Source of the DNA: a virus
Taxonomy: Duplodnaviria > Heunggongvirae > Uroviricota > Caudoviricetes
DNA: 44,555 nt
Reading direction: 5' to 3' (one strand)
Virus record (IMG/VR): IMGVR_UViG_2734482571_000013
The notes under the pieces: model-generated
Seen by the model: only the letters and a program-made list of their open reading frames with translations
Database searches by the model: none
Told to the model about the DNA's origin: nothing
Position numbers and translations under genes: made by a program
Shown: piece after piece, positions 1-44,555 of the stretch
How the letters are laid out: each line of letters starts with the position of its first letter
How positions within the stretch are numbered: position 1 is the first letter of the stretch

Positions 1-1236
1 CTACGATAACCGCGCATTCAACATGGCTACCTGTTCGTCGTTCATGTCATCAATCCACATACCGTAAATTTCATACACCATCTGCGCAGTTTCATGCCCC
101 ATCTGGCTGGCTATAAACGCCGGGTTCGCTCCTGCCGTCAACAGCCAGCAGGCAAAAGTATGCCGCGTATGGTACGGATTACGGCGGCGAATACCAGCAC
201 GTTTTACTGCTGCATTCCATCTCGCACCCAAACTGCTTACCGAGTAATAAGGTTTCTGTTTTCCGTTACACACTCTGGGCATGAAAACAAAATGCAGTTT
301 TTGCTTTTCGGTTCTGCCGTACTCCCGATGATAAAAAGTGATTTCGCTTTTGCGATGATGCCCGGTCAGTTTGTATTGCTCCTTCAGTGCTTCAAGAGCA
401 GGCTGCAGTAGTGTTACCGTCCGGATCCCCGCATTTGTTTTTGGGGGACCGAACATATCCAGTATCGTCAGGTTTCTTCTGACATTCACAACTCCCTTCT
501 CGAAATCCACATCCTCCCACGCCAGAGCAGCCAGTTCCCCGTGACGAAGCCCGGAGTATACGGCAAATTTCCACAAGTTCTGGCTCTGTCCTTTTTCACT
601 TTCCATTAATGCATTGAATTCTGTTTTAGATAACGGGTCAGGCTTTATTCTGTTTCTCTGTAATTTCTTTACTCCTTCAAATGGTTTGGTTGATATAAAT
701 CCCGACTGATACGCAAAACGTAACAACGAACAGAGCAGGGCGATATAGTTATCAACTGTGCGCACGGTTCTTCCTTTTTTGTTGGATCTTGGATTATCCA
801 GGTAAAGCGTTTCTCCATGCAGCAGTTCATTCCGGTAGTTTAAGATATCGCTATAACGAATATGCGATATCGGAGTACTCTCACAAATTATTATCCTGAG
901 TGTTTTTAATTGTGATTTCGTTTTCTTCATTGTGTTTGTTGTTAACTCTGTTTCTTTAATTTTTGTCCAGATATCACAAAGCTCCCCGAACGTTTTTATG
1001 ACCCTCGTTGTCACCATTTTTGCCCCAGTGCTGGACTGGGGAAAACGTCTTAAATACTCAAACTCACCGGAATTGATTTCATGAACTATCAACGCTCTTA
1101 AATTCCCGGCTTTTTTAATGTTACTGTTAGTAACCTCCCAGCCTTTCAATGTTTCCCGACATCGTTTTCCTCGAAACATGAACCAGATGCGAATGTATTT
1201 ACCTCGAATCTCGACACCTGTTGGTAATTTAGACAT
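1..1236 (-). CDS. intR: Tyrosine-recombinase integrase (411 aa)
   Basis: Full ORF with stop at 1-3; C-terminal catalytic region with HTRHT (His-x-x-Arg) and downstream Tyr (MVYEIYG) typical of tyrosine integrases; sits beside xis. Confidence 0.9.
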   Translation of the reverse strand: MSKLPTGVEIRGKYIRIWFMFRGKRCRETLKGWEVTNSNIKKAGNLRALIVHEINSGEFEYLRRFPQSSTGAKMVTTRVIKTFGELCDIWTKIKETELTTNTMKKTKSQLKTLRIIICESTPISHIRYSDILNYRNELLHGETLYLDNPRSNKKGRTVRTVDNYIALLCSLLRFAYQSGFISTKPFEGVKKLQRNRIKPDPLSKTEFNALMESEKGQSQNLWKFAVYSGLRHGELAALAWEDVDFEKGVVNVRRNLTILDMFGPPKTNAGIRTVTLLQPALEALKEQYKLTGHHRKSEITFYHREYGRTEKQKLHFVFMPRVCNGKQKPYYSVSSLGARWNAAVKRAGIRRRNPYHTRHTFACWLLTAGANPAFIASQMGHETAQMVYEIYGMWIDDMNDEQVAMLNARLS

Positions 1237-1237
1237 A

Positions 1238-1453
1238 TCATGAGTCTTTGATAAACTGATTTATCTTTGGATAGTTATACCAGATAATCCCTCGCTTACT
1301 GTCTGGCTTCCCTAAAGGAGATACTCGTTTGAAGTGGAAGCCTTCCACCCAACAGTTCTGGCGGTATGCTTCAATTTGTCTGGCCCCCAGACCAGTGCGA
1401 AGCATCAGGCCGTATTCAACCATCCACTCTTCATTAAAGATTACTTGTGCCAT
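1238..1453 (-). CDS. Excisionase-like protein (71 aa from MAQVIF)
   Basis: Small ORF immediately upstream of int on the same strand, 1 nt from int start; GAGGTGA Shine-Dalgarno 4 nt before the ATG at 1453; listed ORF extends in frame to 1477. Confidence 0.7.
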
Positions 1454-1552
1454 CGCATCACCTCTGGCAGGCGCCAATGTTAGACTTAAATTGACGCCCG
1501 ATGTTGATTATTAATAATCAGCTATGAAGTTTTAATTTGAATACAATGCAAT

Positions 1553-1753
1553 TCACGAGGACTGAAGTTTCTCGCAATTAAAATTTATCAGTTTTACTTT
1601 CTGCTCTCTGGAAACGCCTGCTTCTTTTTTACCTGAGAGCATTTTTTCGCATTCTGATTTCGTTAGTTTAGATTTTGAATATCTTGTCCAGTTAGTAGGA
1701 GTGCCACCTTCCTTTTCAATAGTGGCGGTAATTTTATACATGAACACCTCCAT
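1553..1753 (-). CDS. ydaC: Small hypothetical protein, Rac YdaC-like
   Basis: ORF 1553..1813; most likely start at MEVFMYK or MYK; position between xis and ralR as in Rac; start uncertain. Confidence 0.5.
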   Translation of the reverse strand: MEVFMYKITATIEKEGGTPTNWTRYSKSKLTKSECEKMLSGKKEAGVSREQKVKLINFNCEKLQSS

Positions 1754-1778
1754 TATTATTTCCAGTGGTTCGTTTATT

Positions 1779-1940
1779 TCATCGTTCGAGTGCTTCTTTT
1801 TCACTTCCACCATAACCGGTTCGGGATTCGCATCCGTTACACTTCGCTCGGTAATATCCTGAAATGGCTTTCACCGTTACTGATGGACAACCACAAAATG
1901 GACATGGTTTAACATTGTCATATCTCATAATTTTTCTCAT
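1779..1940 (-). CDS. ralR: Restriction alleviation protein Lar/RalR-like, Cys-rich (53 aa)
   Basis: Hand-translated minus-strand ORF MRKIMRYDNVKPCPFCGCPSVTVKAISGYYRAKCNGCESRTGYGGSEKEALER; CxxC...CxxC zinc-finger-like pattern; immediately downstream of recT; below the 60-aa ORF-track cutoff. Confidence 0.6.
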   Translation of the reverse strand: MRKIMRYDNVKPCPFCGCPSVTVKAISGYYRAKCNGCESRTGYGGSEKEALER

Positions 1941-1983
1941 AAAAATATTTCAAGTTGGCGGTGCATTACACCGCCAGGCTGAA

Positions 1984-2793
1984 TTATTCCTCTGAATTAT
2001 CGATTACACTGTATTCCCCGGTTAATACAGAGGAATCTGCAGGATCGATTGTCAGTGGTTCCTTTTCATCCATTGATACTGCACGCTGGATCTCAATTGA
2101 TACGGGCAGATATTTGAACAGGCGACGAATAGCCGTTTTCTTTGCCATTTCTTCCCAGTGAGTTACCCACGGCCCGTTATTACCAGCTTTACTCTGGCTG
2201 CGCACCAGCTCAATCTGTTTGCGCGTCATAACTTCAAACTGAGTACCTCCGTCTTTCAGTCTTGCGACAGCATAGACGTGGGTAACAGGGGCATCTTCGT
2301 TTTCTCCTGGGCGGTGTATTAACTTTTCATCAAGGCCAAATTCGAAATTAAACTCGTCACCTTCACGGACAACACGGGCTGACAGGCTGGCGATTTGACC
2401 TGAACGGCGAGCCAGATCAATCATGCCGCGATAGCCAATGATTAGCTGAACGTTTTTTTTACCGCTCTTTTCGTTTTTATTACCAAAAGGCAGTAAATAT
2501 GCATGACCGAGGGCGCTACCGGGCTCAAGTCCGAGCTGTGAACACTGTACGATTGCACTGACAAAACTCATAGTGTCACAGTTTCCTAACGCCGGAACTT
2601 TACGAATTTCTGTGGTGGCGATACGGATCATACGTTCAGCCGTCATATGGCGTGGAAGAGCTGCTGCCAGTTGCTCTTTCATTGATGGCTGGTTAATAAA
2701 ACTAATCACGTCGTTATTTTTAATTGCTGCTGGTGCACGGTTTCCCTGAGTTTTTTGCAGATCGGCTTTTGCGATTGGTGGTTGCTTAGTCAT
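1984..2793 (-). CDS. recT: RecT single-strand annealing protein (269 aa)
   Basis: Translation from [13 protein letters not shown] matches RecT as I recall it; start overlaps recE stop by 8 nt. Confidence 0.9.
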
Positions 2794-5386
2794 TTGCATA
2801 TTCCTTAGCCCAGCGGGGCAGTGATAACGTCTTAATAGCTGGCCATTCATCGGTATTGAGGCAGTCAGCCAGGGTTCGCAGATTGCGGTGATATTCCAGC
2901 TGACCTGCCAGTTTTGCTTCTTCGCCCATCATGAAAATTTCAACCGGATAACGTCCGCATTCAATAGTTGTGCTGGCAACCAGAAAAACGAAAGTTGGCT
3001 GCACTCCAAACTGTGCTTCATAACCGTCACTGTAGAATGCATCCTGAACGTGATAGCGGTAGTCGTAATAAGCGGTTTTGAATCGTTGAATATCCGCCGT
3101 AGTTTTCACGTCCATGATCCAGTGAAATTCAGGGATAATTTTGTCCGGACGGCACCGACACAAAATTGCTGTTTCAGGATCTTCCCAGTAAATTGATGAT
3201 TCAGCGTGTCCGGCGCTTTCAACAAGCCATTGCCCCAGCGGCAAAGCCATAACGCTCTGATACATGAGTTCAATTTTCCGGCCTTCTTCGGCAGTGATAA
3301 CCGTTTTTCCTGTGCTTGCGCATTCCCTCAGAAACGCTTTCTCTTCTTCTTTTCCGGAGTTTGTCCGGCGGTTAAATTCAGGTGCTACGATAAAGCGGTT
3401 ACTGAATTCTTCCGGCTCAAGTACCCGGCAGTGGAAAGCGGTTCCTAAATCGAGCGTTTTTGTCTTTGTGGTGTCCACGGGGGCATTTTTACGCCACAAA
3501 TACAGTGCCGGAGTATCAGCAATGTCATCGAGCTGAGACTTACTGACACCGGGACCCGCGTGGTAATTCTCATTCGAAATTCCGTAATAAATACCTGGCT
3601 CTATGTCTTCTACGATTACGGGATCTGCGACTTCGCCAGTTTCATCACTGCAATCGCGATGCGGATCGCTGCCAGCATTCTCATTGTGCGGATGTTCAGC
3701 GCCTTCCATTTCCTCCGGATCATTTTCCTTAGCTTCAACCTGACTCTCTTCATCGAATGTTTCCTGGTATGTTGCGTCGCCCATCACCGCACCACAGTCA
3801 GGGCAGTTATCCCCGCCAGTCTGGCCGCAGGCATTGCAGGCTATTTCCGGTTCCTGTTGCACTACTGGCTCAGGTTGATTCATATCCGGGCTGGTTTTTT
3901 CCGTTTCTGGCTGGTTCTGGTACACACAATCGCGAGTCTGGATCCCCTTTACCCATTTCGGATCGTTCGGGTCGCTAATTCCGTCAACAAATTCACCACG
4001 TGATGCAGCAAGCAATTTATCGGCATCGACAGGATTTTTTGATGGAATGTTTTTCCGGGCTTCATGGAGTTCTGCCCGCAGTTCCTGATATTTCGCATCA
4101 ACAGAATTTACCTGTGACTGAGCATCCAGCGGCTGCGTGTCCTGATGATGTTCAGTTGCGTCCGGTTCCATTGTTTCAGCCTCTCCCTGTTCAACTGCCG
4201 TTGTTCCAGATGGTTGCGGTTTTTCTTCATCATCCTGTTTTCCTTCTTCTGTTACTCGCTGCGGCATCGGGGCAGAGGAGCGACCGCAGGCAATATCCAC
4301 GATTTCCGGATCAGGGTTGGCATGATCGGTTTCAGTCAGTACTTTGTTCAGATATTCAGTGACGTGCGCGGGGATGACCTCGATCCCAATTGGTGCTTCT
4401 TTTACGGACGCAACCACGATGGCGCGGGAATAATCCAGCCCGCCAGGCATGGTGATGAATTTGTCGCGGAAAACAGAAAAGGGCGGTTTATTTTCAGCGA
4501 TAATTTCCTCAATGCGTTTAGCGTGTGCCGGATGAAGGTTATAGATGTCCAGATCCATTGAACGGGCCAGTACGCCAGTGGCTACGTCCCGCGCCAGTGA
4601 CGTCAGATCGTGTACGAAACCTTCGCCGCGATCGGTGAGGTTTCCGCCGCCAGCATTAGCACCGGAAGCCGTGCGAGTGATGTGTGAAACACGATTACCC
4701 TTCATCCACTCTTTTGTCAGCAGTCCTCGATCGGTGTAGTCAGCGTTCAGGTATGCTTCGAAAAAAGCAGTTATCAGTCCCAGGTTTGAATTACCAGGAT
4801 TAGGGAAAACTTTGTCAGTGTCACGAACCAGTTTGTGGAGTTCGCGAATTTCCAGCGGGTCGAGCAGGCTGGTTTTGTGGGAAACAGCCAGGGCAGTAAC
4901 AGCCGGTAGTTCTTCAGCCCGAGCAATGTGTAATGCCTGGAGTCCGTCGCGTGAAACGTGCGTTACCGGTTTTTCGCTGCCGTGTTGAGCAAGCCAACGA
5001 ATGGGCAGTTCCTGGCCAGAAATTGGGAGTAGCATATTCTCCTCAATCTCAGTCATGTCTTCGCCGTTGACGTTGGTATTGCCTTGATAGTGAGCGTTGT
5101 CTGGTGCTGCTCCCGGTTTTAGTTCCCATGTCATGGAGTCTTTGCTGAGTTGATAGCGTTCACTCCAGGTAAAATCGATCTCACCTTCAGCGGGCAGGTC
5201 ATTAACGACAGGAAAATTCGTGGCAACAGCTTTAAAATAGCTGCTCAGTTTTTTACCTGACTTAACGATCAGGTAGTCCAGAGTGGCACAGGTCGATTCA
5301 AAATCGTTGCTTGCCCACAGGACGACGTCAGGTTCACCGGATGATTTTTTCGCTTTCCGTAACAGGAAGAGTGGTTTTGTGCTCAT
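2786..5386 (-). CDS. recE: RecE exonuclease VIII (866 aa)
   Basis: 866-aa ORF, length and sequence consistent with Rac RecE; C-terminal nuclease domain; translationally coupled to recT. Confidence 0.9.
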
Positions 5387-5487
5387 TGTTTTTTAACCTC
5401 AACTCAGATTAAAATTCGTTTTGTTCAGTGAATGATCTTGCCGGATACACACTGTTCATAGCCTGCGCCATACGCAGGCTATTTCTT

Positions 5488-5763
5488 TCAGATTTCACCT
5501 TTTAATTTCATTGCAATTAGAGTTGCCAGAAATTCGGCTTTTTTTTCTGCGGGCAGATTCTTTCCGATATGCACCAGGCACATTTTTTTGACACCTTCAT
5601 CAAGTGTTTTTACGTTGCCTGATGGACCATCGATATCAACCACAGTGAATGGGGTTTCTTTATTTTCTGTTTTAATTACGTAGCCAATGCGCTTTCCTTC
5701 CAGATTCACCTCGTGAACAATGTCATCGGTAGTTACAACAGTGGCTTCATAATTGGTAATCAT
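5488..5763 (-). CDS. racC: RacC-like small protein (91 aa from MITNYEA)
   Basis: AAGGAG Shine-Dalgarno upstream of internal ATG at 5763; position upstream of recE as in Rac. Confidence 0.7.
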   Translation of the reverse strand: MITNYEATVVTTDDIVHEVNLEGKRIGYVIKTENKETPFTVVDIDGPSGNVKTLDEGVKKMCLVHIGKNLPAEKKAEFLATLIAMKLKGEI

Positions 5764-5837
5764 GTTTTTCTCCTTAATTAAGGTTGAGCGAATACCTGCC
5801 ATTTCTGGCATAAATTCAGTTTCGAATAGTCAATTAA

Positions 5838-6008
5838 TTAAAGTTCATGTGCCATCTGGTCTTTTTCGGCACAAGCTTCACTGCAATATTTTCTCGGTTC
5901 GTCTTTTGATAAAATCCCGTGCATGAAGTGAAGCATTCTTTCAATAGCTTTGCTTTCTTCAACGTCTTTTTTGCAAAGGTGGTAAGCACATTTTATTTTC
6001 TTAGTCAT
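5838..6008 (-). CDS. ydaE: YdaE-like Cys/His-rich small protein (56 aa)
   Basis: Hand-translated [56 protein letters not shown]; start codon shares a base with the kilR stop; below ORF-track cutoff. Confidence 0.7.
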   Translation of the reverse strand: MTKKIKCAYHLCKKDVEESKAIERMLHFMHGILSKDEPRKYCSEACAEKDQMAHEL

Positions 6009-6229
6009 CACCATGACTCCGCCTTTACAGGTAAACCATCACGACCGAGGAAGACTTTAATCATGCGGTCAGTAATGCATGTTTTTGTGGTCAGGTTACG
6101 AATATATAGTTTTCGCTTTTTAATATTGTTTGCCGAGGCAATATATGTCCGGCCTTCATGAAGAACATAATCGCCAGGAGTCACACACTGACGTGGTATT
6201 TCATCAGTTCCGAAGTGATGTGCAATCAT
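6008..6229 (-). CDS. kilR: KilR-like host-killing / division-inhibitor protein (73 aa from MIAHHF)
   Basis: Translation matches KilR as recalled; Rac gene order. Confidence 0.8.
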
Positions 6230-6670
6230 AATTATCTCCATTTTTACAAATGAACTTTGTTGATGCGGTGCCTGGTGCCTCCAGGTGACTGCAACCAGTT
6301 AACAATTACAGTCGGCTTTCCCACCCAAACCAATAAGGACTAACATGACTTTTAACTGTGCCACGTGCGCTTAGCCGCATTCACCGCATCACAAAATTCA
6401 CTTTAAAAAGGGCGGACATCAGCCGAACTTCAAGAAAAAAACTGATGCCGCCAGGACTACACACAGCAATGTCGTTATTTACAACCGGAGGCGCACTCCC
6501 ACCATTTAAATTTAACAGACAAGACCGACTCTTTATGGATATCGGAAATGCGCCTTCGTGTTGTGCCCGGTTTTATTTCACCACCTCCGGGCTTCGGTGG
6601 TCTCGGCTATACCCCTACAGCGAGAGCTTGTGTTAACATTTCAATACCCTTACAGTTGAGAGTTATTGAT

Positions 6671-7159
6671 ATGTTGGATGTATTTACTCCATTGTTGAAA
6701 CTTTTTGCTAACGAGCCACTCGAAATACTTATGTATACGATTATCATTTTTGGTCTCACTCTCTGGCTGATACCGAAAGAGTTTACTGTCGCATTCAATG
6801 CTTATACTGAAATACCTTGGCTCTTTCAGATTATCGTTTTTGCCTTTTCTTTCGTGGTCGCCATTTCCTTCTCAAGATTGCGAGCACATATTCAAAAGCA
6901 TTATTCATTACTACCAGAGCAACGAGTATTGCTTCGTTTATCTGAGAAAGAAATCGCTGTATTTAAAGATTTCCTTAAAACAGGAAATCTTATTATCACT
7001 TCTCCTTGCCGTAACCCGGTTATGAAAAAATTAGAACGGAAGGGCATCATTCAACATCAGAGTGATAGCGCAAACTGTTCTTATTATCTCGTCACCGAAA
7101 AATACTCCCATTTTATGAAGTTATTCTGGAACAGCAGGAGTAGACGTTTTAATCGTTAG
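6671..7159 (+). CDS. sieB: SieB superinfection exclusion protein (162 aa from MLDVFTPLL), membrane protein
   Basis: Internal start MLDVFTPLLKLF with hydrophobic N-terminal helices; the upstream in-frame extension to 6548 is probably not translated. Confidence 0.75.
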   Translation: MLDVFTPLLKLFANEPLEILMYTIIIFGLTLWLIPKEFTVAFNAYTEIPWLFQIIVFAFSFVVAISFSRLRAHIQKHYSLLPEQRVLLRLSEKEIAVFKDFLKTGNLIITSPCRNPVMKKLERKGIIQHQSDSANCSYYLVTEKYSHFMKLFWNSRSRRFNR

Positions 7160-7311
7160 CTTACTGTGTGCTTCTCCAACCATCGGCGCGCACCAGTTTC
7201 GGTTTTAAATGTTTTGCTTTTGGTATACGTCATGGCAGTGAACGTTCCATCCTGGTTGGGGAACACGCCGCACACCAGGGATTCGTTGTTGCCGAGGTCG
7301 ATTTTTTGCAT
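7156..7311 (-). CDS. ydaF: Small hypothetical protein, YdaF-like (51 aa)
   Basis: Hand-translated MQKIDLGNNESLVCGVFPNQDGTFTAMTYTKSKTFKTETGARRWLEKHTVS; stop converges with sieB stop; 10 nt downstream of ydaG. Confidence 0.5.
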   Translation of the reverse strand: MQKIDLGNNESLVCGVFPNQDGTFTAMTYTKSKTFKTETGARRWLEKHTVS

Positions 7312-7321
7312 TTTGCGAATC

Positions 7322-7456
7322 TCACATCTTGTTGCTGTGTATAGCGACTTCTGCCTGCCAGAGATCCCAGTCGTTGCTGCGTAAAGCCTGCACAGCCTGG
7401 TTGTAAGTGATACCGCAACAATCCATCAAATACTGAACTACTTCGTAATGCACCAT
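7322..7456 (-). CDS. ydaG: Small hypothetical protein, YdaG-like (44 aa from MVHYEVV)
   Basis: GGGAGAG Shine-Dalgarno before internal ATG; leftward early-operon position. Confidence 0.5.
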   Translation of the reverse strand: MVHYEVVQYLMDCCGITYNQAVQALRSNDWDLWQAEVAIHSNKM

Positions 7457-7629
7457 CTTATCTCTCCCCTTAACGCCGGGTGGCGGAACTGAAACCTGCT
7501 GCACTGCAAAATCTGAACCCTGCCGTCATGTTCATACGCCTCGGGCTGGCTACTTAACCCCTGACCACTGCCTGGTAACTCGAAGTATTGCCCTGCGTTC
7601 TGTGGGGCGGGGTGGGTTGGTAGGTATAT

Positions 7630-7680
7630 AATGTACTTTGTGTTCATTGATGTAAAGTACTATAAGTACATTTTGTGTGT
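7630..7680. promoter_or_regulatory. Putative leftward operator/promoter region (OL/PL-like) with ATGTACT / AGTACAT half-sites
   Basis: Motif ATGTACT at about 7633, AAGTACT and AGTACAT around 7660-7672; same heptamer recurs twice in the repressor-cro intergenic region; lies 3' of the repressor gene where leftward early transcription would start. Confidence 0.35.
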
Positions 7681-7746
7681 AAAAAAATGAGATGGGATAA
7701 AGTGAAGCACAAACCCGGAGGGGGACGCTACCGGATTTATGCTGGT

Positions 7747-8184: not shown

Positions 8185-8186
8185 TC

Positions 8187-8221
8187 TTGAATGTACTGTC
8201 AGTTCTGTTATAGCATGTACT
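8187..8221 (+). promoter_or_regulatory. Putative rightward promoter PR with two ATGTACT operator half-sites
   Basis: TTGAAT (8187-8192) then about 16-17 nt then TATAGC; ATGTACT at 8191-8197 and 8215-8221 overlapping the -35 and start region; upstream of Cro-like ATG 8246 with GAGGGTGA Shine-Dalgarno. Confidence 0.4.
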
Positions 8222-8245
8222 CAAAGTTCACATTGTGAGGGTGAT

Positions 8246-8919: not shown

Positions 8920-8931
8920 GCAAAAGTTTCC

Positions 8932-9789: not shown

Positions 9790-9795
9790 CTGACC

Positions 9796-31418: not shown

Positions 31419-31421
31419 CAC

Positions 31422-34897: not shown

Positions 34898-34922
34898 AAA
34901 CCCACTTCGCGGTGGGTTTTTT
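34898..34922 (+). terminator. Hairpin plus T-run between T and tape measure gene (attenuator-like)
   Basis: ACCCAC-TTCGCG-GTGGGT followed by TTTTTT. Confidence 0.45.
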
Positions 34923-34942
34923 GTTGTCAGGAGTTTTAATAA

Positions 34943-37900
34943 ATGGCAGAGCAAACCTCGCGTCTCGCAATAATTATTGATAGCACTGGAGCGAAAAATA
35001 ATGCTGACAATCTGACCTCCTCATTAGTCAAAATGACGCAGGCTGGGGAAACTGCTGCAAATAGCGCAGGGAAAGTGACTAAGGCAACAGAAGATGAGAA
35101 GAACGCGCTCGCAAAATTAAAAGCAGCTATTGATCCAGTTGGTGCCGCAATTGATACTGTCGGTCGACGCTATTCTGAATTAAAGAAATTTTTCGATAAA
35201 GGGCTTATTGATAAAGAAGAATATGAATTTCTTGTCCGTAAACTTAATGAAACCACAGAGGAATTGAGCGGGGTTGCGCAAGCGCAGAGAGAAGCCGAGA
35301 AGGCCGGAAAACTTGCTGCCGCCCAGCAGGAAGCGCAGGCTCAGGCCTTTCAAAGAATGCTGGACAAGATCGACCCTCTGGCTGCGGCGCTAAGAAATCT
35401 TGAACAACAGCATGATGAACTTAATGCTGCGTTTGCATCCGGGAAAATAAATGGTTCTCAGTTTGAGAATTATAGCCGAAAAATACAGGAAACACGGCGA
35501 GAGCTTACCGGAGAGGCTCAGGCAGAGCGAGAAGCAGCAAAAGCGCATGATGAACAGGTTGTTGCTTTGCAACGTCTGATTGCTCAACTTGATCCTGTCG
35601 GAACTGCTTTTAATCGTCTGGTAGAACAACAGAAACAGCTCAATGAAGCAAAAGCTAAGGGGATGCTTTCTCCTGAAATGTATGAGGAGCTTTCTGGAAA
35701 ACTTCGTGCTATGCGGAGTGAGCTTGAGGTTACTCAATCACAATTAAGCAAAACCGGAATGTCGGCAAAACAAACGGCTTTTGCTATGCGCATGTTGCCT
35801 GTACAAATGACGGATATTGTTGTTGGGTTGTCCACTGGTCAGTCGCCATTTATGGTGTTAATGCAGCAGGGCGGCCAGCTAAAAGATATGTTCGGTGGGA
35901 TTGGCCCGGCGATCAAAGGTGTAGGTTCTTATGTGCTGGGATTAATTAATCCTTTTACCCTGGCCGCAGCAGCCGTTGGGGTCTTAGGACTGGCTTACTA
36001 TAAAGGCTCTCAGGAGCAGGACGAATTTAATAAATCTCTTATTCTTACCGGAAATCAGTTGGGGACAACCAGCGGGCAATTGGGCGATATAGCTCAACGT
36101 GCCGGGAATGCGGCTGATTCGACAACTGGTGCTGCGGCGGCAGTATTAAATCAGCTTGTGCGTTCGGGAAAGGTAGCGAGCAGTTCGCTGGAGCAAGTGA
36201 CGACAGCGATAGTAAAAACGAGCGAAGTAACAGGAATATCAACCGAACAACTGGTTAATGACTTCAATGAAATTGCAAAGGATCCTGTCAGTGCCATATC
36301 AAAACTTAATGATCAGTACCATTTTCTGACACTTGCGACTTATAACCAGATTAAGGCGCTACAGGATGAAGGGAACCAGCAGGAGGCCGCCCGCATTGCG
36401 ACAGAAGAATACTCATCCTCAATGATCCAGCGCACCAACCAGATTAAAGAAAATCTTGGTTATCTTGAGACTGCATGGAAAGCTGTCGCAGACTCCGCAA
36501 AATGGGCATGGGATTCCATGCTGGATATTGGCCGTGAGGCCTCCCTTGATCAAAAAATCTCAGATGTTCTCCGTCAAATTGATGAAATAGAAAAAAATAC
36601 CCGACCCGGAGTTTTCGGGTTAGGTGGCATTGGAGATGGCGGAGCTCAAAATAAAAGGCTGGCACGATTAAAGCAGCAATTGGGCGTACTTCAAGCAGAA
36701 AAAATTGCTCAGGACGTACTAAATTCATCAATAAACGATTACAACAAGCGACAACAGGAAGGAATTGAACTCAGACAGAGAGCAGATGCCTTTTCAAAAC
36801 AATATCAGACCCGGGAGCAGCAGAGAGCTAGTGAACTTGCAAAACTGGAAAAGCTAAAGAATCAGTATTCAAAGGAAGAATATAATAATCTTATCGCTCA
36901 AATAAATGAGCGTTATAAAGATCCAAAGCAACCAAAGGCGAAAGGTTATTCTGATGATGCAGCCCAACGAATGATTGATCATCTGAATCAACAGAATGCG
37001 TTACTAAGTTCACAAGCTGAGTTGACCGTTAAATTAAGTTCCTCTGAACAGGAACTGGTTAAGTGGCGTCAGCGGATTGCCGACCTAGAGTCACGACCAT
37101 CATCGAAATTAACCCAGGATCAGAAATCGCTTCTCTTACACCGGGAAGAAATAACCACGTTGATGGAGAAAAATGTTGCGATTGAAAAAAATAACAGGCT
37201 AATCAAGGAATCCGCCGAAATAACAGCATGGCGTGATTCATTGCAGGCTTCGATTGATAATCGTCAGCAGGGGTATGATATTCAGATTGCTGGTTATGGG
37301 GTTGGCGATAAAAATCAGCAACGCCAGCAGGAATTACTGCGGATTGAACATGGATATAACAATCAGCGTCTGCAACTTGAACGTGACTATGCAGATAAAT
37401 CCCGTGGAATGTCAGATCATGTTTTTCAAGAGAAAATGCAGGCTCTGAATGATGCTCTGGAACGGGAAAAAGAAATTGTCAGACAGAAAAACGAGCAGCT
37501 CGATATTCAGGCAGGAGACTGGGTTAGTGGTGCCTCCCAGGGATTCAATAACTGGCTGGATGACACTAAGGATATCAGTGAGCAGATAAAATCAACCACG
37601 ACTCAGATGTTTGATGGGATGACCGATGCGCTGGGTGATTTTGTCACGACAGGCAAGGCAAATTTTCGTTCTTTCGCTACTTCCGTGATTTCGGATCTTA
37701 GTCGAATAGCATTAAAGGCTTCAATTACTGGGATTTTCGACAGCATTAGTAACAGTTCTTCTGGGGGGATTTTAGGAACTATCGGGAGTGCTATTAGTAA
37801 ATTTATTCCGAATGCAAAGGGCGGTGTTTATGAGTCTCCGTCATTGAGCACGTATTCGAACGGTATTTATGATTCCCCGCAATTTTTTGCTTTTGCAAAA

Positions 37901-38176
37901 GGGGCTGGTGTTTTTGGTGAGGCTGGACCGGAAGCCATTATGCCATTAACACGAACTTCCGATGGTTCTCTTGGTGTCAGAGCTATTAATAGTAAAAGTG
38001 GTAATGGAGGCGGAGATATTACCTATGCCCCTGTATACCAAATCACTATTCAAAATGACGGCCAGAATGGAGAGATTGGCCCTCAGGCAATAAAAGCACT
38101 TATGGGGATGGTTGATCAGCGGGTGCAGGGCAATCTGTTAAATATGCGACGTGATGGGGGAATGTTAAGTGGCTAA
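34943..38176 (+). CDS. H: Tail tape measure protein (1077 aa)
   Basis: Length, coiled-coil-rich N-terminal half, Gly-rich hydrophobic segment, position after G/T. Confidence 0.85.
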
Positions 38177-38507
38177 TACGGAAGAATTTCACTGGTTACC
38201 AGAGGATGGAATGAAAACAGAAAATAAACCATCGATAAAAACTGTAAGATTTGGTGATGGTTATGAGCAACGAAGTCCAAATGGACTTAATCATTCTCTG
38301 CGCGTTTTCACCTGTGATTTCAAAGTTGAGGCGAATGAACGTGATTCATTTGAAAAATTTTTAGCCCGGCATGAAGGCTATAAATCTTTTTTTTGGCGCC
38401 CGCCGGGTATTAACAGAAAAATCAGAGTGGTGTGTCGAACGTGGTCAGCGACAGAACATATCACCTATACCGATTTTTCGTGTCAGTTTGACGAAGTGGT
38501 GATCTGA
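38169..38507 (+). CDS. M: Minor tail protein M-like (112 aa)
   Basis: Similar to lambda gpM as recalled ([10 protein letters not shown]...KSFFW); position. Confidence 0.8.
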
Positions 38508-39205
38508 TGCAGGACATACAACAGGAAACGCTGAATGAATGCATTCGTGCGGAGCAGTCGGCCAGCGTGGTGCTCTGGGAAATCGACCTGACCGAGGTAG
38601 GCGGGGATCGCTACTTTTTCTGCAATGAGCAGAACGAGAAAGGAGAGTCTGTCACCTGGCAGAGTCGGCAGTATCAGGCCTATCCCATTCAGGGGAGTGG
38701 ATTTGAGATGAACGGCAAAGGTGCCAGTGCAAGGCCAACGCTGAAAGTCTCTAATCTGCACGGCATGGTCACCGGGATGGCGGAAGACCTGCAGAGTCTG
38801 GTCGGCGGAACGGTGGTCAGGCGTAAGGTTTACGCCCGTTTTCTGGATGCGGTGAACTTCGTCAACGGAAACAGTGACGCCGATCCGGAGCAGGAGGTGA
38901 TCAGCCGCTGGCGTATTGAGCAGTGCAGCGAACTGAGCGCGGTCAGTGCCTCCTTTGTACTGTCCACGCCGACGGAAACGGACGGCGCTGTTTTTCCGGG
39001 GCGCATCATGCTTGCTAATACCTGCACCTGGACCTATCGCGGTGATGAGTGCGGTTATCACGGTCCGGCTGTCGCGGATGAATATGACCAGCCAACGTCC
39101 GATATCACGAAGGATAAATGCAGCAAATGCCTGAGCGGTTGTAAGTTCCGCAATAACGTCGGCAACTTTGGCGGCTTCCTTTCCATTAACAAACTTTCGC
39201 AGTAA
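38507..39205 (+). CDS. L: Minor tail protein L-like (232 aa)
   Basis: Length and C-terminal Cys cluster as in lambda gpL; position. Confidence 0.8.
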   Translation: MQDIQQETLNECIRAEQSASVVLWEIDLTEVGGDRYFFCNEQNEKGESVTWQSRQYQAYPIQGSGFEMNGKGASARPTLKVSNLHGMVTGMAEDLQSLVGGTVVRRKVYARFLDAVNFVNGNSDADPEQEVISRWRIEQCSELSAVSASFVLSTPTETDGAVFPGRIMLANTCTWTYRGDECGYHGPAVADEYDQPTSDITKDKCSKCLSGCKFRNNVGNFGGFLSINKLSQ

Positions 39206-39210
39206 ATCCC

Positions 39211-39954
39211 ATGACACAGACAGAATCAGCGATTCTGGCGCACGCCCGGCGATGTGCGCCAGCGGAGTCGTGCGGCTTCGTGGTGAGAACACCGGAGGGG
39301 GAAAGATATTTTCCCTGCGTGAATATTTCCGGTGAGCCGGAGGAGTATTTCCGGATGGCTCCGGAGGACTGGCTGCAGGCAGAGATGCAGGGTGAGATTG
39401 TGGCGCTGGTCCACAGCCACCCCGGTGGTCTGCCCTGGCTGAGTGAGGCCGACCGGCGGCTGCAGGTGCAGAGTGATTTGCCGTGGTGGCTGGTCTGCCG
39501 GGGGGCGATTCATAAGTTCCGCTGTGTGCCGCATCTCACCGGGCGGCGCTTTGAGCACGGGGTGACGGACTGTTACACGCTGTTCCGGGACGCTTACCAT
39601 CTGGCGGGGATTGAGATGCCGGACTTTTATCGTGAGGATGACTGGTGGCGTAACGGCCAGAATCTCTATCTTGATAATCTGGAGGCCACAGGGCTGTATC
39701 AGGTGCCGTTGTCAGCGGCGCAGCCGGGCGATGTGCTGCTGTGCTGTTTTGGTTCATCGGTGCCGAATCATGCCGCCATTTACTGTGGTGACGGCGAGCT
39801 GCTGCACCATATTCCTGAACAACTGAGCAAACGAGAGAGGTACACCGACAAATGGCAGCGACGCACACACTCCCTCTGGCGTCACCGGGCATGGCACGCA
39901 TCTGCCTTTACGGGGATTTGCAGCGATTTGGCCGCCGCATCGACCTTCGTGTGA
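39211..39954 (+). CDS. K: Tail assembly protein K-like (JAB/MPN plus NlpC/P60-type)
   Basis: HSHP metalloprotease motif (VALVHSHPGG); overlaps the I gene. Confidence 0.8.
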   Translation: MTQTESAILAHARRCAPAESCGFVVRTPEGERYFPCVNISGEPEEYFRMAPEDWLQAEMQGEIVALVHSHPGGLPWLSEADRRLQVQSDLPWWLVCRGAIHKFRCVPHLTGRRFEHGVTDCYTLFRDAYHLAGIEMPDFYREDDWWRNGQNLYLDNLEATGLYQVPLSAAQPGDVLLCCFGSSVPNHAAIYCGDGELLHHIPEQLSKRERYTDKWQRRTHSLWRHRAWHASAFTGICSDLAAASTFV

Positions 39955-40499
39955 AAACGGGGGCCGAAGCCATCCGGGCACTGGCCACACAGCTCCCGGC
40001 ATTTCGTCAGAAACTGAGCGACGGCTGGTATCAGGTGCGCATTGCCGGGCGTGATGCAGGCGAAAATGAATTATCTGCCCGTCTTAATGAACCGCTGGCA
40101 AATGGTGCCGTGATCCACATCGTTCCGCGTCTGGCGGGTGCCAAAAGTGGCGGTGTGTTTCAGGCGGTGCTGGGTGCGGCGCTGATTGCGGTGGCATGGT
40201 GGAACCCTGTGGGCTGGCTGGGGGCCGCGGCTGTATCGGGTATGTATGCAGCAGGGGCCAGTATGATCCTGGGTGGTGTGGCGCAGATGCTGGCACCGAA
40301 AGCCAGGACGCCCACGGCAGCCAGTACAGATAACGGCAAACAGAACACGTATTTCTCGTCACTGGATAACATGGTTGCCCAGGGTAATGTTCTGCCTGTT
40401 CTGTACGGGGAAATGCGCGTGGGGTCACGTGTGGTTTCTCAGGAGATCAGCACGGCAGACGAAGGGGATGGTGGTCAGGTTGTGGTGATTGGTCGCTGA
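39852..40499 (+). CDS. I: Tail assembly protein I-like (215 aa)
   Basis: Translation MAATHTLPLASPGMARICLYGDLQRFG... matches lambda gpI as recalled. Confidence 0.8.
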   Translation: MAATHTLPLASPGMARICLYGDLQRFGRRIDLRVKTGAEAIRALATQLPAFRQKLSDGWYQVRIAGRDAGENELSARLNEPLANGAVIHIVPRLAGAKSGGVFQAVLGAALIAVAWWNPVGWLGAAAVSGMYAAGASMILGGVAQMLAPKARTPTAASTDNGKQNTYFSSLDNMVAQGNVLPVLYGEMRVGSRVVSQEISTADEGDGGQVVVIGR

Positions 40500-40517
40500 T
40501 GCAAAATGTTTTATGAG

Positions 40518-40537
40518 AAACCGCCTGCGGGCGGTTT
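40518..40537 (+). other. Stem-loop between I and J
   Basis: AAACCGCC-TGCG-GGCGGTTT followed by TGTCGTTT. Confidence 0.35.
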
Positions 40538-40559
40538 TGTCGTTTATGGAGCGTGAGGA

Positions 40560-43500
40560 ATGGGTAAAGGCAGCAGTAAGGGGCATACCCCGCGCGAAGC
40601 GAAGGACAACCTGAAGTCCACGCAGCTGCTGAGTGTGATCGATGCCATCAGTGAAGGGCCGGTTGAAGGTCCGGTGGATGGATTAAAAAGCGTGCTGCTG
40701 AACAGTACGCCGGTGCTGGACAATGAGGGGAATACCAACATCTCCGGCGTCACGGTGGTGTTCCGGGCAGGTGAGCAGNNNNNNNNNNNNNNNNNNNNNN
40801 NNNNNNNNNNNNNNNNNNNNNNNNNNNNNNNNNNNNNNNNNNNNNNNNNNNNNNNNNNNNNNNNNNNNNNNNNNNNNNNNNNNNNNNNNNNNNNNNNNNN
40901 NNNNNNNNNNNNNTGCTGAACAGTACGCCGGTGCTGGACAGTGAGGGGAATACCAACATCTCCGGCGTCACGGTGGTGTTCCGGGCAGGTGAGCAGGAGC
41001 AGTCACCGCCGGAGGGATTTGAATCCTCCGGCTCCGAGACGGTGCTGGGTACGGAAGTGAAATATGACACGCCGATCACCCGGACCATCACGTCGGCAAA
41101 CATCGACCGTCTGCGCTTTACCTTCGGTGTACAGGCACTGGTGGAAACCACCTCAAAGGGAGACAGGAATCCGTCNNNNNNNNNNNNNNNNNNNNNNNNN
41201 NNNNNNNNNNNNNNNNNNNNNNNNNNNNNNNNNNNNNNNNNNNNNNNNNNNNNNNNNNNNNNNNNNNNNNNNNNNNNNNNNNNNNNNNNNNNNNNNNNNN
41301 NNNNNNNNNNNNNNNNNNNNNNNNNNNNNNNNNNNNNNNNNNNNNNNNNNNNNNNNNNNNNNNNNNNNNNNNNNNNNNNNNNNNNNTCATCGATGTGAAA
41401 CAGTGCTACCCGAACACTGCACTGGTCGGCGTACAGGTGGACTCGGAGCAGTTCGGCAGCCAGCAGGTGAGTCGTAATTATCATCTTCGCGGGCGCATTC
41501 TGCAGGTGCCGTCGAACTATAACCCGCAGACGCGACAATACAGCGGTATCTGGGACGGAACGTTAAAACCAGCATACAGCAANNNNNNNNNNNNNNNNNN
41601 NNNNNNNNNNNNNNNNNNNNNNNNNNNNNNNNNNNNNNNNNNNNNNNNNNNNNNNNNNNNNNNNNNNNNNNNNNNNNNNNNNNNNNNNNNNNNNNNNNNN
41701 NNNNNNNNNNNNNNNNNNNNNNNNNNNNNNNNNNNNNNNNNNNNNNNNNNNNNNNNNNNNNNNNNNNNNNNNNNNNNNNNNNNNNNNNNNNNNNNNNNNN
41801 NNNNNNNNNNNNNNNNNNNNNNNNNNNNNNNNTCATCGATGTGAAACAGTGCTACCCGAACACGGCACTGGTCGGCGTACAGGTGGATTCGGAGCAGTTC
41901 GGCAGCCAGCAGGTGAGCCGTAATTATCATCTTCGCGGGCGCATTCTGCAGGTGCCGTCGAACTATAATCCGCAGACGCGGCAATACAGCGGTATCTGGG
42001 ACGGAACGTTAAAACCGGCATACAGCAACAACATGGCCTGGTGTCTGTGGGATATGCTGACCCATCCGCGCTATGGCATGGGGAAACGTCTTGGTGCGGC
42101 AGATGTGGATAAATGGGCGCTGTATGTCATCGGCCAGTACTGTGACCAGTCGGTGCCGGACGGCTTTGGCAGCACGGAGCCGCGCATCACCTGTAATGCC
42201 TGGCTGACCACACAGCGCAAGGCGTGGGATGTGCTCAGTGATTTCTGCTCGGCGATGCGCTGTATGCCGGTATGGAACGGGCAGACGCTGACATTCGTGC
42301 AGGACCGACAGTCGGATAAGGTGTGGGCCTATAACCGCAGTAATGTGGTGATGCCGGATGATGGCGCGCCGTTCCGCTACAGTTTCAGCGCCCTGAAAGA
42401 CCGCCATAATGCCGTTGAGGTGAACTGGATTGACCCGGATAACGGCTGGGAGACGGCGACAGAGCTTGTGGAGGATACGCAGGCCATTGTCCGTTACGGT
42501 CGTAACGTCACGAAGATGGATGCCTTTGGCTGTACCAGCCGGGGGCAGGCACACCGCGCCGGGCTGTGGCTGATTAAAACGGAACTGCTGGAGACGCAGA
42601 CCGTGGATTTCAGCGTGGGTGCTGAAGGGCTTCGTCATGTACCGGGCGATGTCATTGAAATCTGCGATGATGACTATGCCGGTATCCGCACCGGCGGGCG
42701 CGTGCTGGCGGTGAACAGCCAGACCCGGACGCTGACGCTCGACCGTGAAATCACGCTGCCATCCTCCGGCACCACGCTGATAAGCCTGGTTGACGGTGAG
42801 GGTAATCCGGTCAGCGTGGAGGTCCAGTCCGTCACCGACGGCGTGAAGGTAAAAGTGAGCCGTGTTCCTGACGGTGTTGCTGAATACAGCGTGTGGGGGC
42901 TGAAGCTGCCGACGCTGCACCAGCGATTGTTCCGCTGCGTGAGTATCCGTGAGAACGACGACGGCACGTATGCCATCACCGCCGTGCAGCATGTGCCGGA
43001 AAAAGAAGCCATCGTGGATAACGGGGCGCACTTTGACGGCGACCAGAGCGGCACGGTGAATGGTGTCACGCCGCCAGCGGTGCAGCACCTGACTGCCGAA
43101 GTCACCGCAGACAGCGGGGAATATCAGGTGCTGGCGCGCTGGGACACGCCGAAGGTGGTGAAGGGCGTGAGCTTCCTGCTCCGTCTGACCGTAACAGCGG
43201 ATGACGGCAGTGAGCGGCTGGTCAGCACGGCCCGGACGACGGAAACCACTTACCGCTTCACACAACTGGCGCTGGGGAACTACAGGCTGACAGTCCGGGC
43301 AGTAAATGCGTGGGGGCAGCAGGGCGATCCGGCGTCGGTATCGTTCCGGATTGCCGCACCGGCAGCGCTGTCGCGGATTGAGCTGACGCCGGGCTATTTT
43401 CAGATAACCGCCACGCCGCATCTTGCGGTTTATGATCCGACGGTACAGTTTGAGTTCTGGTTCTCGGAAAAGCGGATTGCGGATATCAGGCAGGTTGAAA

Positions 43501-44555
43501 CCACAGCACGCTATCTTGGCACGGCGCTGTACTGGATAGCCGCCAGTATCAATATCAAACCGGGCCATGATTATTACTTTTATATCCGCAGTGTGAACAC
43601 CGTTGGCAAATCGGCATTCGTGGAGGCTGTTGGTCAGCCGAGTGATGATGCATCCGGTTATCTGGATTTTTTCAAAGGCGAGATAGGGAAAACCCATCTG
43701 GCTCAGGAGCTGTGGACGCAGATTGATAACGGTCAGCTTGCGCCTGACCTGGCTGAAATCAGGACGTCCATTACGGATGTCAGCAATGAAATCACGCAGA
43801 CCGTCAATAAGAAACTGGAAGACCAGAGTGCGGCAATTCAGCAGATACAGAAGGTTCAGGTTGATACAAATAATAACCTGAACAGCATGTGGGCTGTGAA
43901 GCTGCAGCAGATGCAGGACGGACGCCTTTATATCGCGGGTATTGGTGCCGGTATTGAGAACACCCCTGACGGCATGCAGAGTCAGGTGCTGCTGGCGGCG
44001 GACAGGATTGCGATGGTTAATCCTGCGAATGGCAACACAAAACCGATGTTTGTTGGTCAGGGCGATCAGATATTCATGAACGACGTGTTCCTGAAACGCC
44101 TGACGGCCCCCACCATTACCAGCGGTGGAAATCCATCGGCATTTTCCCTGACTCCGGACGGAAAGCTGACCGCTAAAAATGCGGATATCAGTGGCAGTGT
44201 GAATGCGAACGCCGGGACGCTCAACAATGTCACGGTAAATGAAAACTGTACGATTAAGGGCATGCTGGAGGCGACTCAGGTCAGAGGTGACTTCGTTAAA
44301 GCTGTATCCAAATCATTTCCGAAACAGGCTGGTACGTGGGGTAACACGGAAACACCAAACGGGACGGTTACAGTCACCATAAGCGATGATCATAACTTTG
44401 ACCGCCAGATTATTATTCCGCCCATTATTTTTAACGGTATAGCGTATGACGATCCGGGGAGCGGAAATAACCCAGGAGGCACGCGATACACGGGTTATGG
44501 TTTTGAAGTTCGCAAAAACGGCGTATTAATCGCATCCAGAGAAACTAAAGGTGCC
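40560..44555 (+). CDS. J: Tail tip / host specificity protein J (partial at 3' end; three assembly gaps with duplicated flanks)
   Basis: N-terminus [24 protein letters not shown] matches lambda J as recalled; frame open to the window end after the last gap; GTGAGGA Shine-Dalgarno. Confidence 0.8.
40779..40913. other. Assembly gap (135 N) in J
   Basis: Run of N; sequence 40696-40778 repeats at 40914-40996 with one mismatch. Confidence 1.
41176..41386. other. Assembly gap (211 N) in J
   Basis: Run of N. Confidence 1.
41583..41832. other. Assembly gap (250 N) in J
   Basis: Run of N; sequence 41387-41582 repeats at 41833-42028 with about 6 substitutions. Confidence 1.

Follow-up and report, generated by a model that had tools for sequence, protein, structure and literature searches.

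What kind of complete phage stands behind the cryptic Rac prophage that Escherichia coli K-12 carries, and does a viral record that resembles it hold such a phage intact? Both questions are raised by the IMG/VR virus record IMGVR_UViG_2734482571_000013, a stretch of 44,555 bases with a G+C content (GC) of about 46%, which was analyzed as a whole and is called here the window. The original prediction, made from the letters of the sequence, had described it as an apparently intact Rac-type prophage with a mosaic head and a lambda-like tail. Our analysis indicates that the window very probably holds the greater part of a full-length lambdoid prophage belonging to the Rac family, whose members integrate at ttcA in E. 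coli. This prophage has the standard layout of a temperate phage and all its visible genes intact, and it is likely to be functional or to have been so recently. Gene identities, colinearity, open frames, mosaic boundaries, and deletion junctions were read directly and are described first, followed by the rival readings, the proposed life cycle, the origin of the separate modules, and the comparison with known systems.

Colinearity with the Rac prophage of K-12

The window was aligned by BLASTN with the K-12 Rac prophage, for which the Rac locus of strain BW25113 served as the reference. The two share four colinear blocks in the same order and orientation, at positions 1 to 7622 (98.7% identity), 8491 to 11014 (98.3%), 20295 to 22560 (99.5%), and 34118 to 35877 (99.9%). 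This alignment was the check that had been proposed together with the prediction, and the extensive divergence across the left arm, named there as the outcome that would contradict it, was not seen. The proposed Rac-type left arm, running from int to ydaG, was borne out by the single block over positions 1 to 7622 and by amino acid identities of 97.7 to 100%. In tblastn searches, the K-12 proteins IntR, XisR, RcbA (YdaC), RalR, RecT, RecE, RacC, YdaE, KilR, SieB, YdaF, YdaG, YdaT, YdaU, YdaV, TrkG, YdaY, and YnaA matched within this same range of identity over their full or nearly full length, and YdaW (95%) and YnaK (99%) aligned as the N-terminal portions of longer window genes. The expected series ydaS-T-U-V plus trkG stood only in part: YdaT, YdaU, and YdaV were found at full length and, like TrkG, at 99.2 to 99.6% identity, but ydaS is absent, and region 7623 to 8490 gave no BLASTN alignment with K-12 Rac.

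Near-identical copies in finished genomes and the deletions of K-12 Rac

The prophage at the Rac site of the finished genome of strain NCTC10444 (NZ_LR134092.1) matches the window at 99.93% over positions 1 to 20154 and at 99.83% over positions 20295 to 40778, with the same genes throughout. It is essentially the same prophage as the one in the window, as are those of the similar finished genomes JP538, EC2, and SW0716xx. The NCTC10444 copy diverges in the tail gene J, where identity drops from 95% to 86% toward the 3′ end; the J gene of the window is nearer to that of strain MB51 (97.6%). In NCTC10444, intR lies beside ttcA, and the 26-bp Rac attachment (att) core, TTGTTCAGGTTGTATTGTTCTTTCTT, occurs at both ends of the element, 52.5 kb apart, a length that includes the sitABCD iron/manganese transporter at the right end. 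This right end of NCTC10444 (sampled loci L022, 4393 to 8227, and L002, 47386 to 47411), like those of the other closest finished relatives, has the transporter genes between tfaR and attR, replacing pinR-ynaE-ynaM. A right end with sitABCD was seen in at least four sampled loci (L011, L013, L014, and L016).

Compared with the NCTC10444 element, K-12 Rac shows three clean deletions, each with a 2-nucleotide overlap at the junction. The first corresponds to positions 11015 to 20137 of the window (9.1 kb); it begins within the DUF1627 gene and ends just inside Rz, leaving two stumps, rzpR and ydaW, the latter being a truncated form of the full-length DUF1627 gene. The second, corresponding to positions 22561 to 34117 (11.6 kb), runs from inside the ParB-like gene to inside a tail chaperone gene and has fused ynaK, the N-terminal stump of the ParB-like protein, to ydaY. 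The third starts at position 35878 and ends inside lom (8.4 kb in NCTC10444), leaving ynaA, which corresponds to the initial 311 codons for the tape measure protein. With these three deletions, an IS5 insertion, and a different immunity cassette, the cryptic Rac prophage of K-12 is a remnant of such an element.

The distribution of this element was surveyed by megablast against 5,426 complete E. coli genomes. Identity reached 100% for matches to the left 12 kb and 98.9% for those to the right 24.5 kb, all of them lying in a prophage beside ttcA. At least 80% of the part in question was covered in 1,084 genomes for positions 1 to 12000, in 108 for positions 11000 to 25000, and in 677 for positions 20000 to 44555. 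The median E. coli genome has four places that match the right arm, the lambdoid tail-tip genes being present in multiple copies.

Integrity of the element and rival readings

With the NCTC10444 annotation as a guide, every annotated gene (50-odd are visible) is a complete open reading frame (ORF) in the window. The PHROG or Pfam profiles of the portal, scaffold, capsid, tail terminator, Q-like, and ParB-like proteins were matched over most or all of their length. As had been predicted, no visible core gene is disrupted; all are open, and the frameshift signal between the tail chaperones G and G-T is conserved. The intact state of every visible gene makes it probable that the element is functional now or was in the recent past.

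Several observations weigh against this reading or limit its reach. To call the element apparently intact exceeds what the window can show, since both att sites, the distal tail genes, and the last part of J lie outside it and parts of Rz and J are masked. The left edge of the window is the stop codon of intR and its right edge falls inside J; attL, attR, the 3′ end of J, lom, the side tail fiber gene stf, and the fiber assembly gene tfa are thus beyond its limits, and the comparison with strain MB51 places the last 166 or so nucleotides of J past the window end. Four runs of N interrupt the sequence (20155 to 20290, 40779 to 40913, 41176 to 41386, and 41583 to 41832), the first masking about 50 Rz codons (approximately codons 13 to 62) and the others about 215 nucleotides of J. 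Two accessory genes are shortened relative to K-12, ralR by a stop in place of W50 (49 against 64 amino acids) and rcbA by a stop in place of R63 (62 against 69 amino acids). Regarding induction, Pfam recognized no peptidase or autocleavage domain in the repressor, and a search of the window for a LexA box (CTGT-N8-ACAG) returned none; because that search was empty, no SOS-controlled gene is proposed. The NCTC10444 element, at 52.5 kb, exceeds the 49.6-kb genome of HK639, a phage with a related head, and its cargo may be pushing the genome toward or past headful capacity. GenBank records of vB_EcoS-xxx "phages" were considered as evidence of viability and rejected, as they are PHASTER predictions from draft genomes and not isolated virions.

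The shortened ralR and rcbA alleles are likewise annotated in NCTC10444. The RalA antitoxin small RNA is intact at positions 1557 to 1735 on the plus strand (225 bits in Rfam, against a gathering score of 170).

The element could accordingly be a defective prophage that looks intact and is nevertheless noninfectious, whether through hidden lesions in the parts that are masked or outside the window, through a genome too large for a headful capsid, or through the loss of its induction pathway. The missing ends, the runs of N inside Rz and J, the 52.5 kb of the nearest finished relative, and a repressor that is not cleavable in a window where no LexA box was found would all fit such a prophage. 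So would the behavior of KingRac, the single Rac-like prophage put to the test, which was only weakly induced, and the state of K-12 Rac, which indicates that the locus readily decays by deletion. Against it stand the 50-odd visible genes, all of them open, and the conserved site of programmed frameshifting. Moreover, copies of the same module at 98 to 99.9% identity are spread over hundreds of genomes of unrelated origin, and in at least four sampled loci the right end that goes with it is that with sitABCD and not that of K-12; this spread, together with the varied right ends, argues for recent mobility. The head is also of the type found in the viable phage HK639. Overall, we regard a defective element as unlikely, though it is the alternative that retains the most weight.

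A second alternative is that several lambdoid prophages of one draft genome were joined during assembly and that the apparent completeness is an artifact of scaffolding. This possibility draws on the runs of N themselves and, in particular, on those inside J. At the first J gap, the sequence after the gap restarts 83 bp upstream of the point where it had ended, and positions 40914 to 40996 repeat 40696 to 40778 with 98.8% identity. Similarly, the 196-bp piece at 41387 to 41582 maps to the same reference coordinates as 41833 to 42028, to which it is 96.9% identical. These small pieces are only 95 to 96% identical to the J genes of the closest references, and the lambdoid tail-tip genes are multicopy in E. 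coli genomes. From this pattern, the J gaps are scaffold joins with short redundant contigs (40914 to 41175 and 41387 to 41582), which most likely represent J paralogs, collapsed or variant, of other lambdoid prophages that the same genome carries; this also counts against the completeness of the window as it stands. The duplications add about 650 bp of artifactual length relative to the real locus. We also considered that the runs of N might be deliberate masks and rejected this for the J gaps because their flanks are duplicated instead of colinear, while the Rz gap fits either explanation.

The rest of the window does not behave as a chimera. Positions 1 to 40778 are interrupted only by the Rz gap, whose flanks are colinear with one locus in finished genomes at 99.8 to 99.9% identity and at the expected spacing (140 nucleotides in the window and 147 in the reference). 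Each J fragment has a single stop-free frame, and the long fragment from 41833 to 44555 is open for 907 codons and continues the same gene in frame. Because the rest is colinear and J continues in frame, any chimerism is limited to about 1 kb inside J, and an assembly chimera is improbable as an account of the whole. Finally, an unrelated lambdoid phage that gained Rac-like modules by recombination and integrated elsewhere is highly improbable: the immunity region, the late region, and J do show exchange with other phages and the integration site is outside the window, but IntR and XisR are 98.8% and 100% identical to the K-12 proteins, the segments colinear with K-12 (the 7.6-kb left arm, ydaTUV-ydaW, Rz-trkG-ynaK, and ydaY-ynaA) follow in the same order at 98.3 to 99.9%, the K-12 deletion junctions map cleanly onto the architecture of the window, and the near-identical NCTC10444 copy adjoins ttcA with the Rac att core at both ends.

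Gene layout, immunity, and proposed life cycle

The features of the prophage are listed in Table 1. No tRNA genes were found in the 44,555 bases of the window.

Table 1. Features of the Rac-family prophage in the window (aa, amino acids)
Feature	Position	Strand	Evidence or remark
Integration module: intR (1-1236, 411 aa), xisR (1238-1453, 71 aa)	1-1453	-	98.8% and 100% aa identity to K-12, full length; same annotation in NCTC10444
rcbA/ydaC (1553-1741, 62 aa), ralR toxin (1779-1928, 49 aa)	1553-1928	-	Translations compared with K-12
recT, recE (866 aa, full length), racC, ydaE, kilR	1984-6229	-	98.5-100% aa identity to K-12, full length
sieB (6671-7159, +), ydaF (7156-7311, -), ydaG (7322-7456, -)	6671-7456		97.7-100% aa identity to K-12
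Immunity: DicA-like helix-turn-helix repressor (7747-8166, -, 139 aa), Cro-like helix-turn-helix protein (8246-8500, +, 84 aa)	7747-8500		Pfam HTH_3, PHROG repressor families
ydaT (CII-like), ydaU (initiator/primosomal-like), ydaV (DnaC-like loader), DUF1627 (253 aa), DUF977 (Ren-like)	8497-11758	+	Pfam, PHROG
HEPN-domain protein (11957-12919, 320 aa), GNAT-like protein (12935-13936, 333 aa)	11957-13936	+	GC 36-40%
DUF1971 (TehB N-terminal-like) gene, probably cargo	14557-14895	-	Pfam E 2.3e-26; partial match to NCBIfam TehB
DUF1367 (NinB/Orf-like), YbcO nuclease, Q-like antiterminator (DUF1133, 180 aa)	15709-17137	+	Pfam; phrog_319, phrog_131, phrog_753
Putative late control: promoter-like site (17508-17537), intrinsic-terminator-like hairpin (17565-17584) plus T run, STnc100-family RNA (17885-18071)	17508-18071	+	
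Two TolA C-terminal-domain ORFs	18182-18610, 18782-19156	+	Pfam TolA E 2.4e-23 and 1.1e-14; lipobox-like N termini IIGC and VAGC
Holin essD (19408-19623), lysozyme rrrD (19623-20120), Rz (20117-20574), Rz1 (20330-20515, 61 aa)	19408-20574	+	NCTC10444 annotation
trkG potassium transporter (485 aa)	20712-22169	+	99.6% aa identity to K-12 TrkG; GC 36-39%
ParB-like (22307-23095, 262 aa), TAGT glycosyltransferase (23088-24020, 310 aa)	22307-24020	+	8-nucleotide overlap; just upstream of terS
Small ORF (69 aa, TerS-like fragment family), terS (24211-25305, 364 aa), terL (25286-26587, 433 aa)	23998-26587	+	Pfam, PHROG
Portal (DUF4055, 468 aa), MuF-like head morphogenesis (370 aa), scaffold (DUF6651, 254 aa), P22-coat-family major capsid (379 aa)	26590-31199	+	
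58-aa protein, adaptor Ad1, head closure Hc1, tail completion, tail terminator, tail tube (320 aa, Phage_tube_2)	31242-33959	+	PHROG, Pfam
Tail assembly chaperones G (K-12 ydaY) and G-T	34110-34777	+	Frame analysis; phrog_313; weak Pfam Phage_TAC_18
Tape measure (1077 aa)	34943-38176	+	Pfam TMP_2, TMP_4, Tape_meas_lam_C; 99.7% to YnaA; 28% to lambda H
Tip assembly M (112 aa), L (232 aa), K (247 aa), I (215 aa)	38169-40499	+	Lambda counterparts at 42, 94, 86-98, and 79% aa identity, respectively
J, tail tip/host-range gene	40560-44555	+	Split by three runs of N and cut by the window end; alignments to MB51, NCTC10444, and lambda

The immunity region, within the stretch that does not align with K-12 Rac, contains a pair of divergent genes encoding a DicA-like repressor and a Cro-like protein, separated by a 79-bp control region. 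The repressor scored 56.8 bits against the DicA subfamily of NCBIfam, below its cutoff of 101. RacR and YdaS, the corresponding K-12 proteins, gave no tblastn match in the window, and direct BLASTP comparison gave only a 33-residue helix-turn-helix match. The racR-ydaS pair has been reported as a variable part of Rac prophages (PMC5700373), and because it varies among them, RacR/YdaS is better regarded as the immunity type of K-12 than as a mark of the family.

Downstream of the replication genes, the prediction of a retained nin-type region and Q was upheld by open frames for the DUF1367, YbcO, and Q-like proteins in the position of lambda nin and Q, although neither the nin-position genes nor the Q-like gene had a sequence match to the lambda nin genes or lambda Q. 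A promoter followed by a terminator hairpin downstream of Q is the classical arrangement for Q-dependent late transcription. The region from 17508 to 18071 fits a putative Q-controlled late leader of this kind, its promoter-like and terminator-like sites being consensus matches only. It ends with an RNA of the STnc100 family (86.6 bits in Rfam, against a gathering score of 47). A permissive Rfam scan of positions 13900 to 19450 found nothing else and no hok/sok-type element.

For regulatory logic, packaging mode, and viability, we infer the following course. IntR and XisR would integrate and excise the element, and the leftward operon would then supply RecE/RecT recombination, KilR, and SieB. 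The divergent DicA-like repressor and Cro-like protein would form the lysogeny switch, followed by the CII-like YdaT and the replication genes ydaU and ydaV. The Q-type antiterminator would turn on a single long late transcript, whose products would be the holin, lysozyme, and spanins; TerS and TerL, which probably package by a headful mechanism; a head of the HK639 type; a tail shaft of non-lambda type, with its G/G-T chaperone; and a lambda-type tip.

Lysis, packaging, and virion genes of mosaic origin

The late region extends from the lysis genes to the tail tip, and the claim that the genome is modular was confirmed by alignment, the terminase being of T4 type, the head of HK639 type, and the tip, but not the shaft, like that of lambda. 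Among all window proteins compared with lambda by tblastn, matches were limited to L, K, I, J, and Rz and, more distantly, M (42%), the tape measure (28%), SieB (26%), and 20 residues of the DUF977 protein.

The lysis cassette had been predicted to be complete. The holin, lysozyme, and Rz1 frames are open, Rz1 with an intact lipobox, and the first 12 and last 92 or so residues of Rz match the NCTC10444 protein on either side of the run of N, which hides about 50 codons. Rz is 93% identical to lambda Rz at the amino acid level.

Terminase, portal, and capsid genes are present as open frames, as proposed, and the head is not that of lambda. TerL is of the T4 type (Terminase_6N/6C) and not of the lambda GpA type, and the terminase gave no match to those of lambda or HK639. 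Because TerL is T4 type, headful rather than cos packaging is suggested. The portal, MuF-like, scaffold, and capsid proteins are 69, 50, 65, and 75% identical to those of HK639 over nearly their full length, with no lambda match for the head module; among the records listed, HK639 is the closest match of the capsid outside prophages. The portal, scaffold, and capsid spanned their whole PHROG profiles, and the MuF-like protein matched only the first 365 of 679 positions of its own.

Regarding the tail, the connector and tail shaft proteins gave no lambda match at an E value below 1e-3. Likewise, lambda Z, U, V, G, and T gave no tblastn match at this threshold, their functions being analogous. 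The Pfam families also differ, with Phage_tube_2 and Phage_tail_terminator_5 in the window and Phage_TTP_12 and Phage_tail_U in lambda-type loci. Chaperone G is 100% identical to residues 4 to 119 of K-12 YdaY. A −1 slippery heptamer, AAAAAAG, lies at positions 34457 to 34463, directly before the G stop codon (34467 to 34469), and the T frame is open from 34433 to 34777. Further downstream, the DNA from 38485 to 43716 is 90 to 96% identical to lambda, the GC climbs from about 45% to 56 to 60%, and the N terminus of J is 97% identical to that of lambda. The full lambda-like tail of the prediction therefore stood for the tip complex and not for the shaft; moreover, J runs off the window, and lom, stf, and tfa are outside. 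Of the M, L, K, I, and J genes named as lambda-like, L, K, I, and J are so (79 to 97%), whereas M is distant (42%). As seen in these comparisons, the tail is a lambda-like tip on a non-lambda shaft.

The identical 215-residue I protein, with matching L and K, was found joined to four head and shaft types in E. coli genomes, namely Gifsy-2-like, lambda-like, HK97-like, and that of the window. With I joined to four unrelated head and shaft modules, the tail-tip cassette offers a clear case of exchange as a unit.

Cargo at the module boundaries

Genes outside the standard phage set lie at the module boundaries: the HEPN/GNAT-like pair, the DUF1971 gene, two TolA-domain lipoprotein genes, trkG, and also the ParB-like/TAGT pair. 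Of these, trkG is low-GC cargo between the lysis and packaging modules and was already present in the full phage. PADLOC gave no meaningful match for the HEPN, GNAT-like, TAGT, TolA-domain, DUF1971, or SieB proteins.

The ParB-like and TAGT genes are a conserved pair. The ParB-like protein was matched over its full length by phrog_620, and it is 41% identical over its whole length to ORF1 of Lactobacillus phage c5 and to gp21 of halovirus HHTV-2. In PADLOC it gave a strong match to MTase_II that covered only the ParB domain of that model. The TAGT protein scored 118.8 bits on PF20691 (cutoff, 27.5) over profile positions 4 to 205 of 205 and matched phrog_842 with an E value of 8e-104; its homologues fall into more than 7,700 clusters, and it had no PDB match by sequence. 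In phage c5 the pair lies at the left end, right after cos and before the terminase, and in the archaeal halovirus HHTV-2 it lies about 3 kb upstream of terL. All three sampled distant homologue loci, metagenomic or genomic, have the pair, two of them directly upstream of other terminase types; its coordinates in these other loci are 90 to 1713 (L029), 2696 to 4358 (L028), and around 3150 to 4890 (L030 to L032). Between the E. coli prophage, phages of Lactobacillus, and the archaeal halovirus, the pair keeps roughly 40 to 46% identity, and it stands beside three unrelated terminase types.

We tentatively propose, as a possibility that we hold to be rather doubtful, that the pair forms a module complete in itself and linked to DNA packaging, and that it glycosylates a packaging component or the DNA of the phage. 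Pfam, PHROG, and NCBIfam scans of the window proteins revealed no TET/JBP dioxygenase or hydroxymethyl-pyrimidine pathway gene, the neighbor of the TAGT gene being the ParB-like gene, and a literature search returned nothing relevant on a ParB/TAGT link or on the function of ynaK. If the pair does modify DNA, a sugar would be attached, in some lambdoid coliphages, to DNA that is canonical in other respects. Conserved beside the terminase in bacterial and archaeal viruses, the pair could be worth a small follow-up.

In the PGAP annotation of NCTC10444, only ynaK and a tolA fragment are flagged as pseudogenes, and both look like real genes in the window. The call for ynaK looks wrong, given the full-length ParB-like frame, and the tolA fragment corresponds here to the first of the two TolA-domain ORFs, 142 amino acids long, with a lipobox-like N terminus and a complete TolA C-terminal domain. 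The two TolA-domain ORFs lie between Q and the holin, and each bears the fold signature of TolA domain III. Their products may act as periplasmic TolA decoys against colicins or filamentous phages.

The HEPN/GNAT-like cassette could plausibly be a toxin or defense module and is a candidate on the following grounds. Homologues of the HEPN protein carry precomputed hits to PF18870 (HEPN/RES-NTD1) and PF18735 (RiboL-PSP-HEPN), and the window protein itself scored 22.2 bits on PF18870, taken as its N-terminal domain, below the cutoff of 27.4. An Rx4H motif (R258 and H263) in its C-terminal helical domain is invariant in an alignment of 21 sequences with identities down to 26%. The second protein has a weak GNAT signature in Pfam. 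A PDB sequence search returned nothing for the HEPN protein and only two chance-level matches for the GNAT-like protein (E of about 0.4 to 0.7).

Relatives of these two genes were seen in several settings. The pair occurs with the same spacing in a mobilizable element of Aeromonas, beside SIR2/cREC genes. A HEPN homologue stands alone at a prophage edge in Aeromonas and beside Druantia genes in another genome, and distant GNAT-like homologues stand alone beside Abi_2. Found elsewhere among defense genes, the cassette could also be worth a small follow-up. The DUF1971 gene lies in a stretch of 36 to 41% GC, with some 600 to 800 bp of unannotated sequence on each side (13937 to 14556 and 14896 to 15708).

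Comparison with known systems

The kind of element held in the window has already been described, and its novelty is low because full-sized or functional Rac-like prophages have been published (PMC5917428, PMC6731689) and copies at 99.8 to 99.9% identity exist in finished, annotated genomes. Current understanding is unchanged by it, and its value is mainly that of a reference, useful for housekeeping, in that it shows how the K-12 Rac genes recET, kilR, ralR, trkG, ynaK, ydaY, ynaA, ydaW, and rzpR relate to a complete phage. K-12 Rac itself (MG1655/BW25113, about 23 kb at ttcA) shares with the window the arm from int to ydaG, ydaT-U-V, trkG, ydaY, and ynaA, together with the 5′ portions of ydaW and ynaK and the 3′ portion of Rz, at 98.3 to 99.9% DNA identity; only K-12 Rac has RacR/YdaS, the full-length ralR and rcbA, and the IS5 insertion, which lies in lom.

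Among full-sized relatives, Rac-like prophages carrying LT-II toxins were described by Jobling (PMC5917428), and KingRac, a 46.8-kb Rac-like prophage at ttcA, was reported by Frazao et al. in 2019 to form particles, to be weakly induced by mitomycin C, and to have replaced K-12 Rac in the mouse gut (PMC6731689). Compared by its published description only, KingRac resembles the window as a full-sized lambdoid prophage at ttcA with a Rac-type int/recET arm; at 46.8 kb it is shorter than the window's nearest relative, which measures about 52.5 kb. Rac-SA53 (KU052037; Jobling 2016) is likewise a full-sized lambdoid prophage at ttcA with this type of arm. It shares the int-ralR region with the window at 96% identity, and matches at 83 to 95% cover portions of recE, racC-kilR, ydaT-U, ydaW-DUF977, the Q region, and terS. 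Its immunity region is annotated as DicA/DicC, in line with the DicA-like one of the window. It differs in having another virion module and other lysis genes, in its LT-IIa and pertussis-like toxin genes, and in carrying a hok/sok-type element at the position equivalent to the one where the scan of the window found none. Its record was examined over the first 40 kb, where no trkG is annotated.

Lambda has terminase, portal, protease/scaffold, D, E, FI, FII, Z, U, V, G, T, CI, Cro, O, P, nin, Q, S, and R products that are without a sequence match in the window. The likeness to lambda lies in the overall lambdoid gene order, in Rz, in L, K, and I, and in J over its N-terminal and central portions (79 to 97%), in the distant M and H, and in the strategy of a −1 frameshift between G and G-T, which the window has in common with it. 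From HK639 (NC_016158), a viable lambdoid phage, the window differs in its terminase and tail shaft, which are unmatched, in its connectors, which are mostly so, and in its early genes, which are unmatched or match weakly in the case of a few proteins. The two resemble each other in the portal, MuF-like, scaffold, and capsid proteins and in the 58-residue protein that follows the capsid (50 to 75%), with further matches to the tail completion protein (38%) and, distantly, to H, M, L, K, and I.

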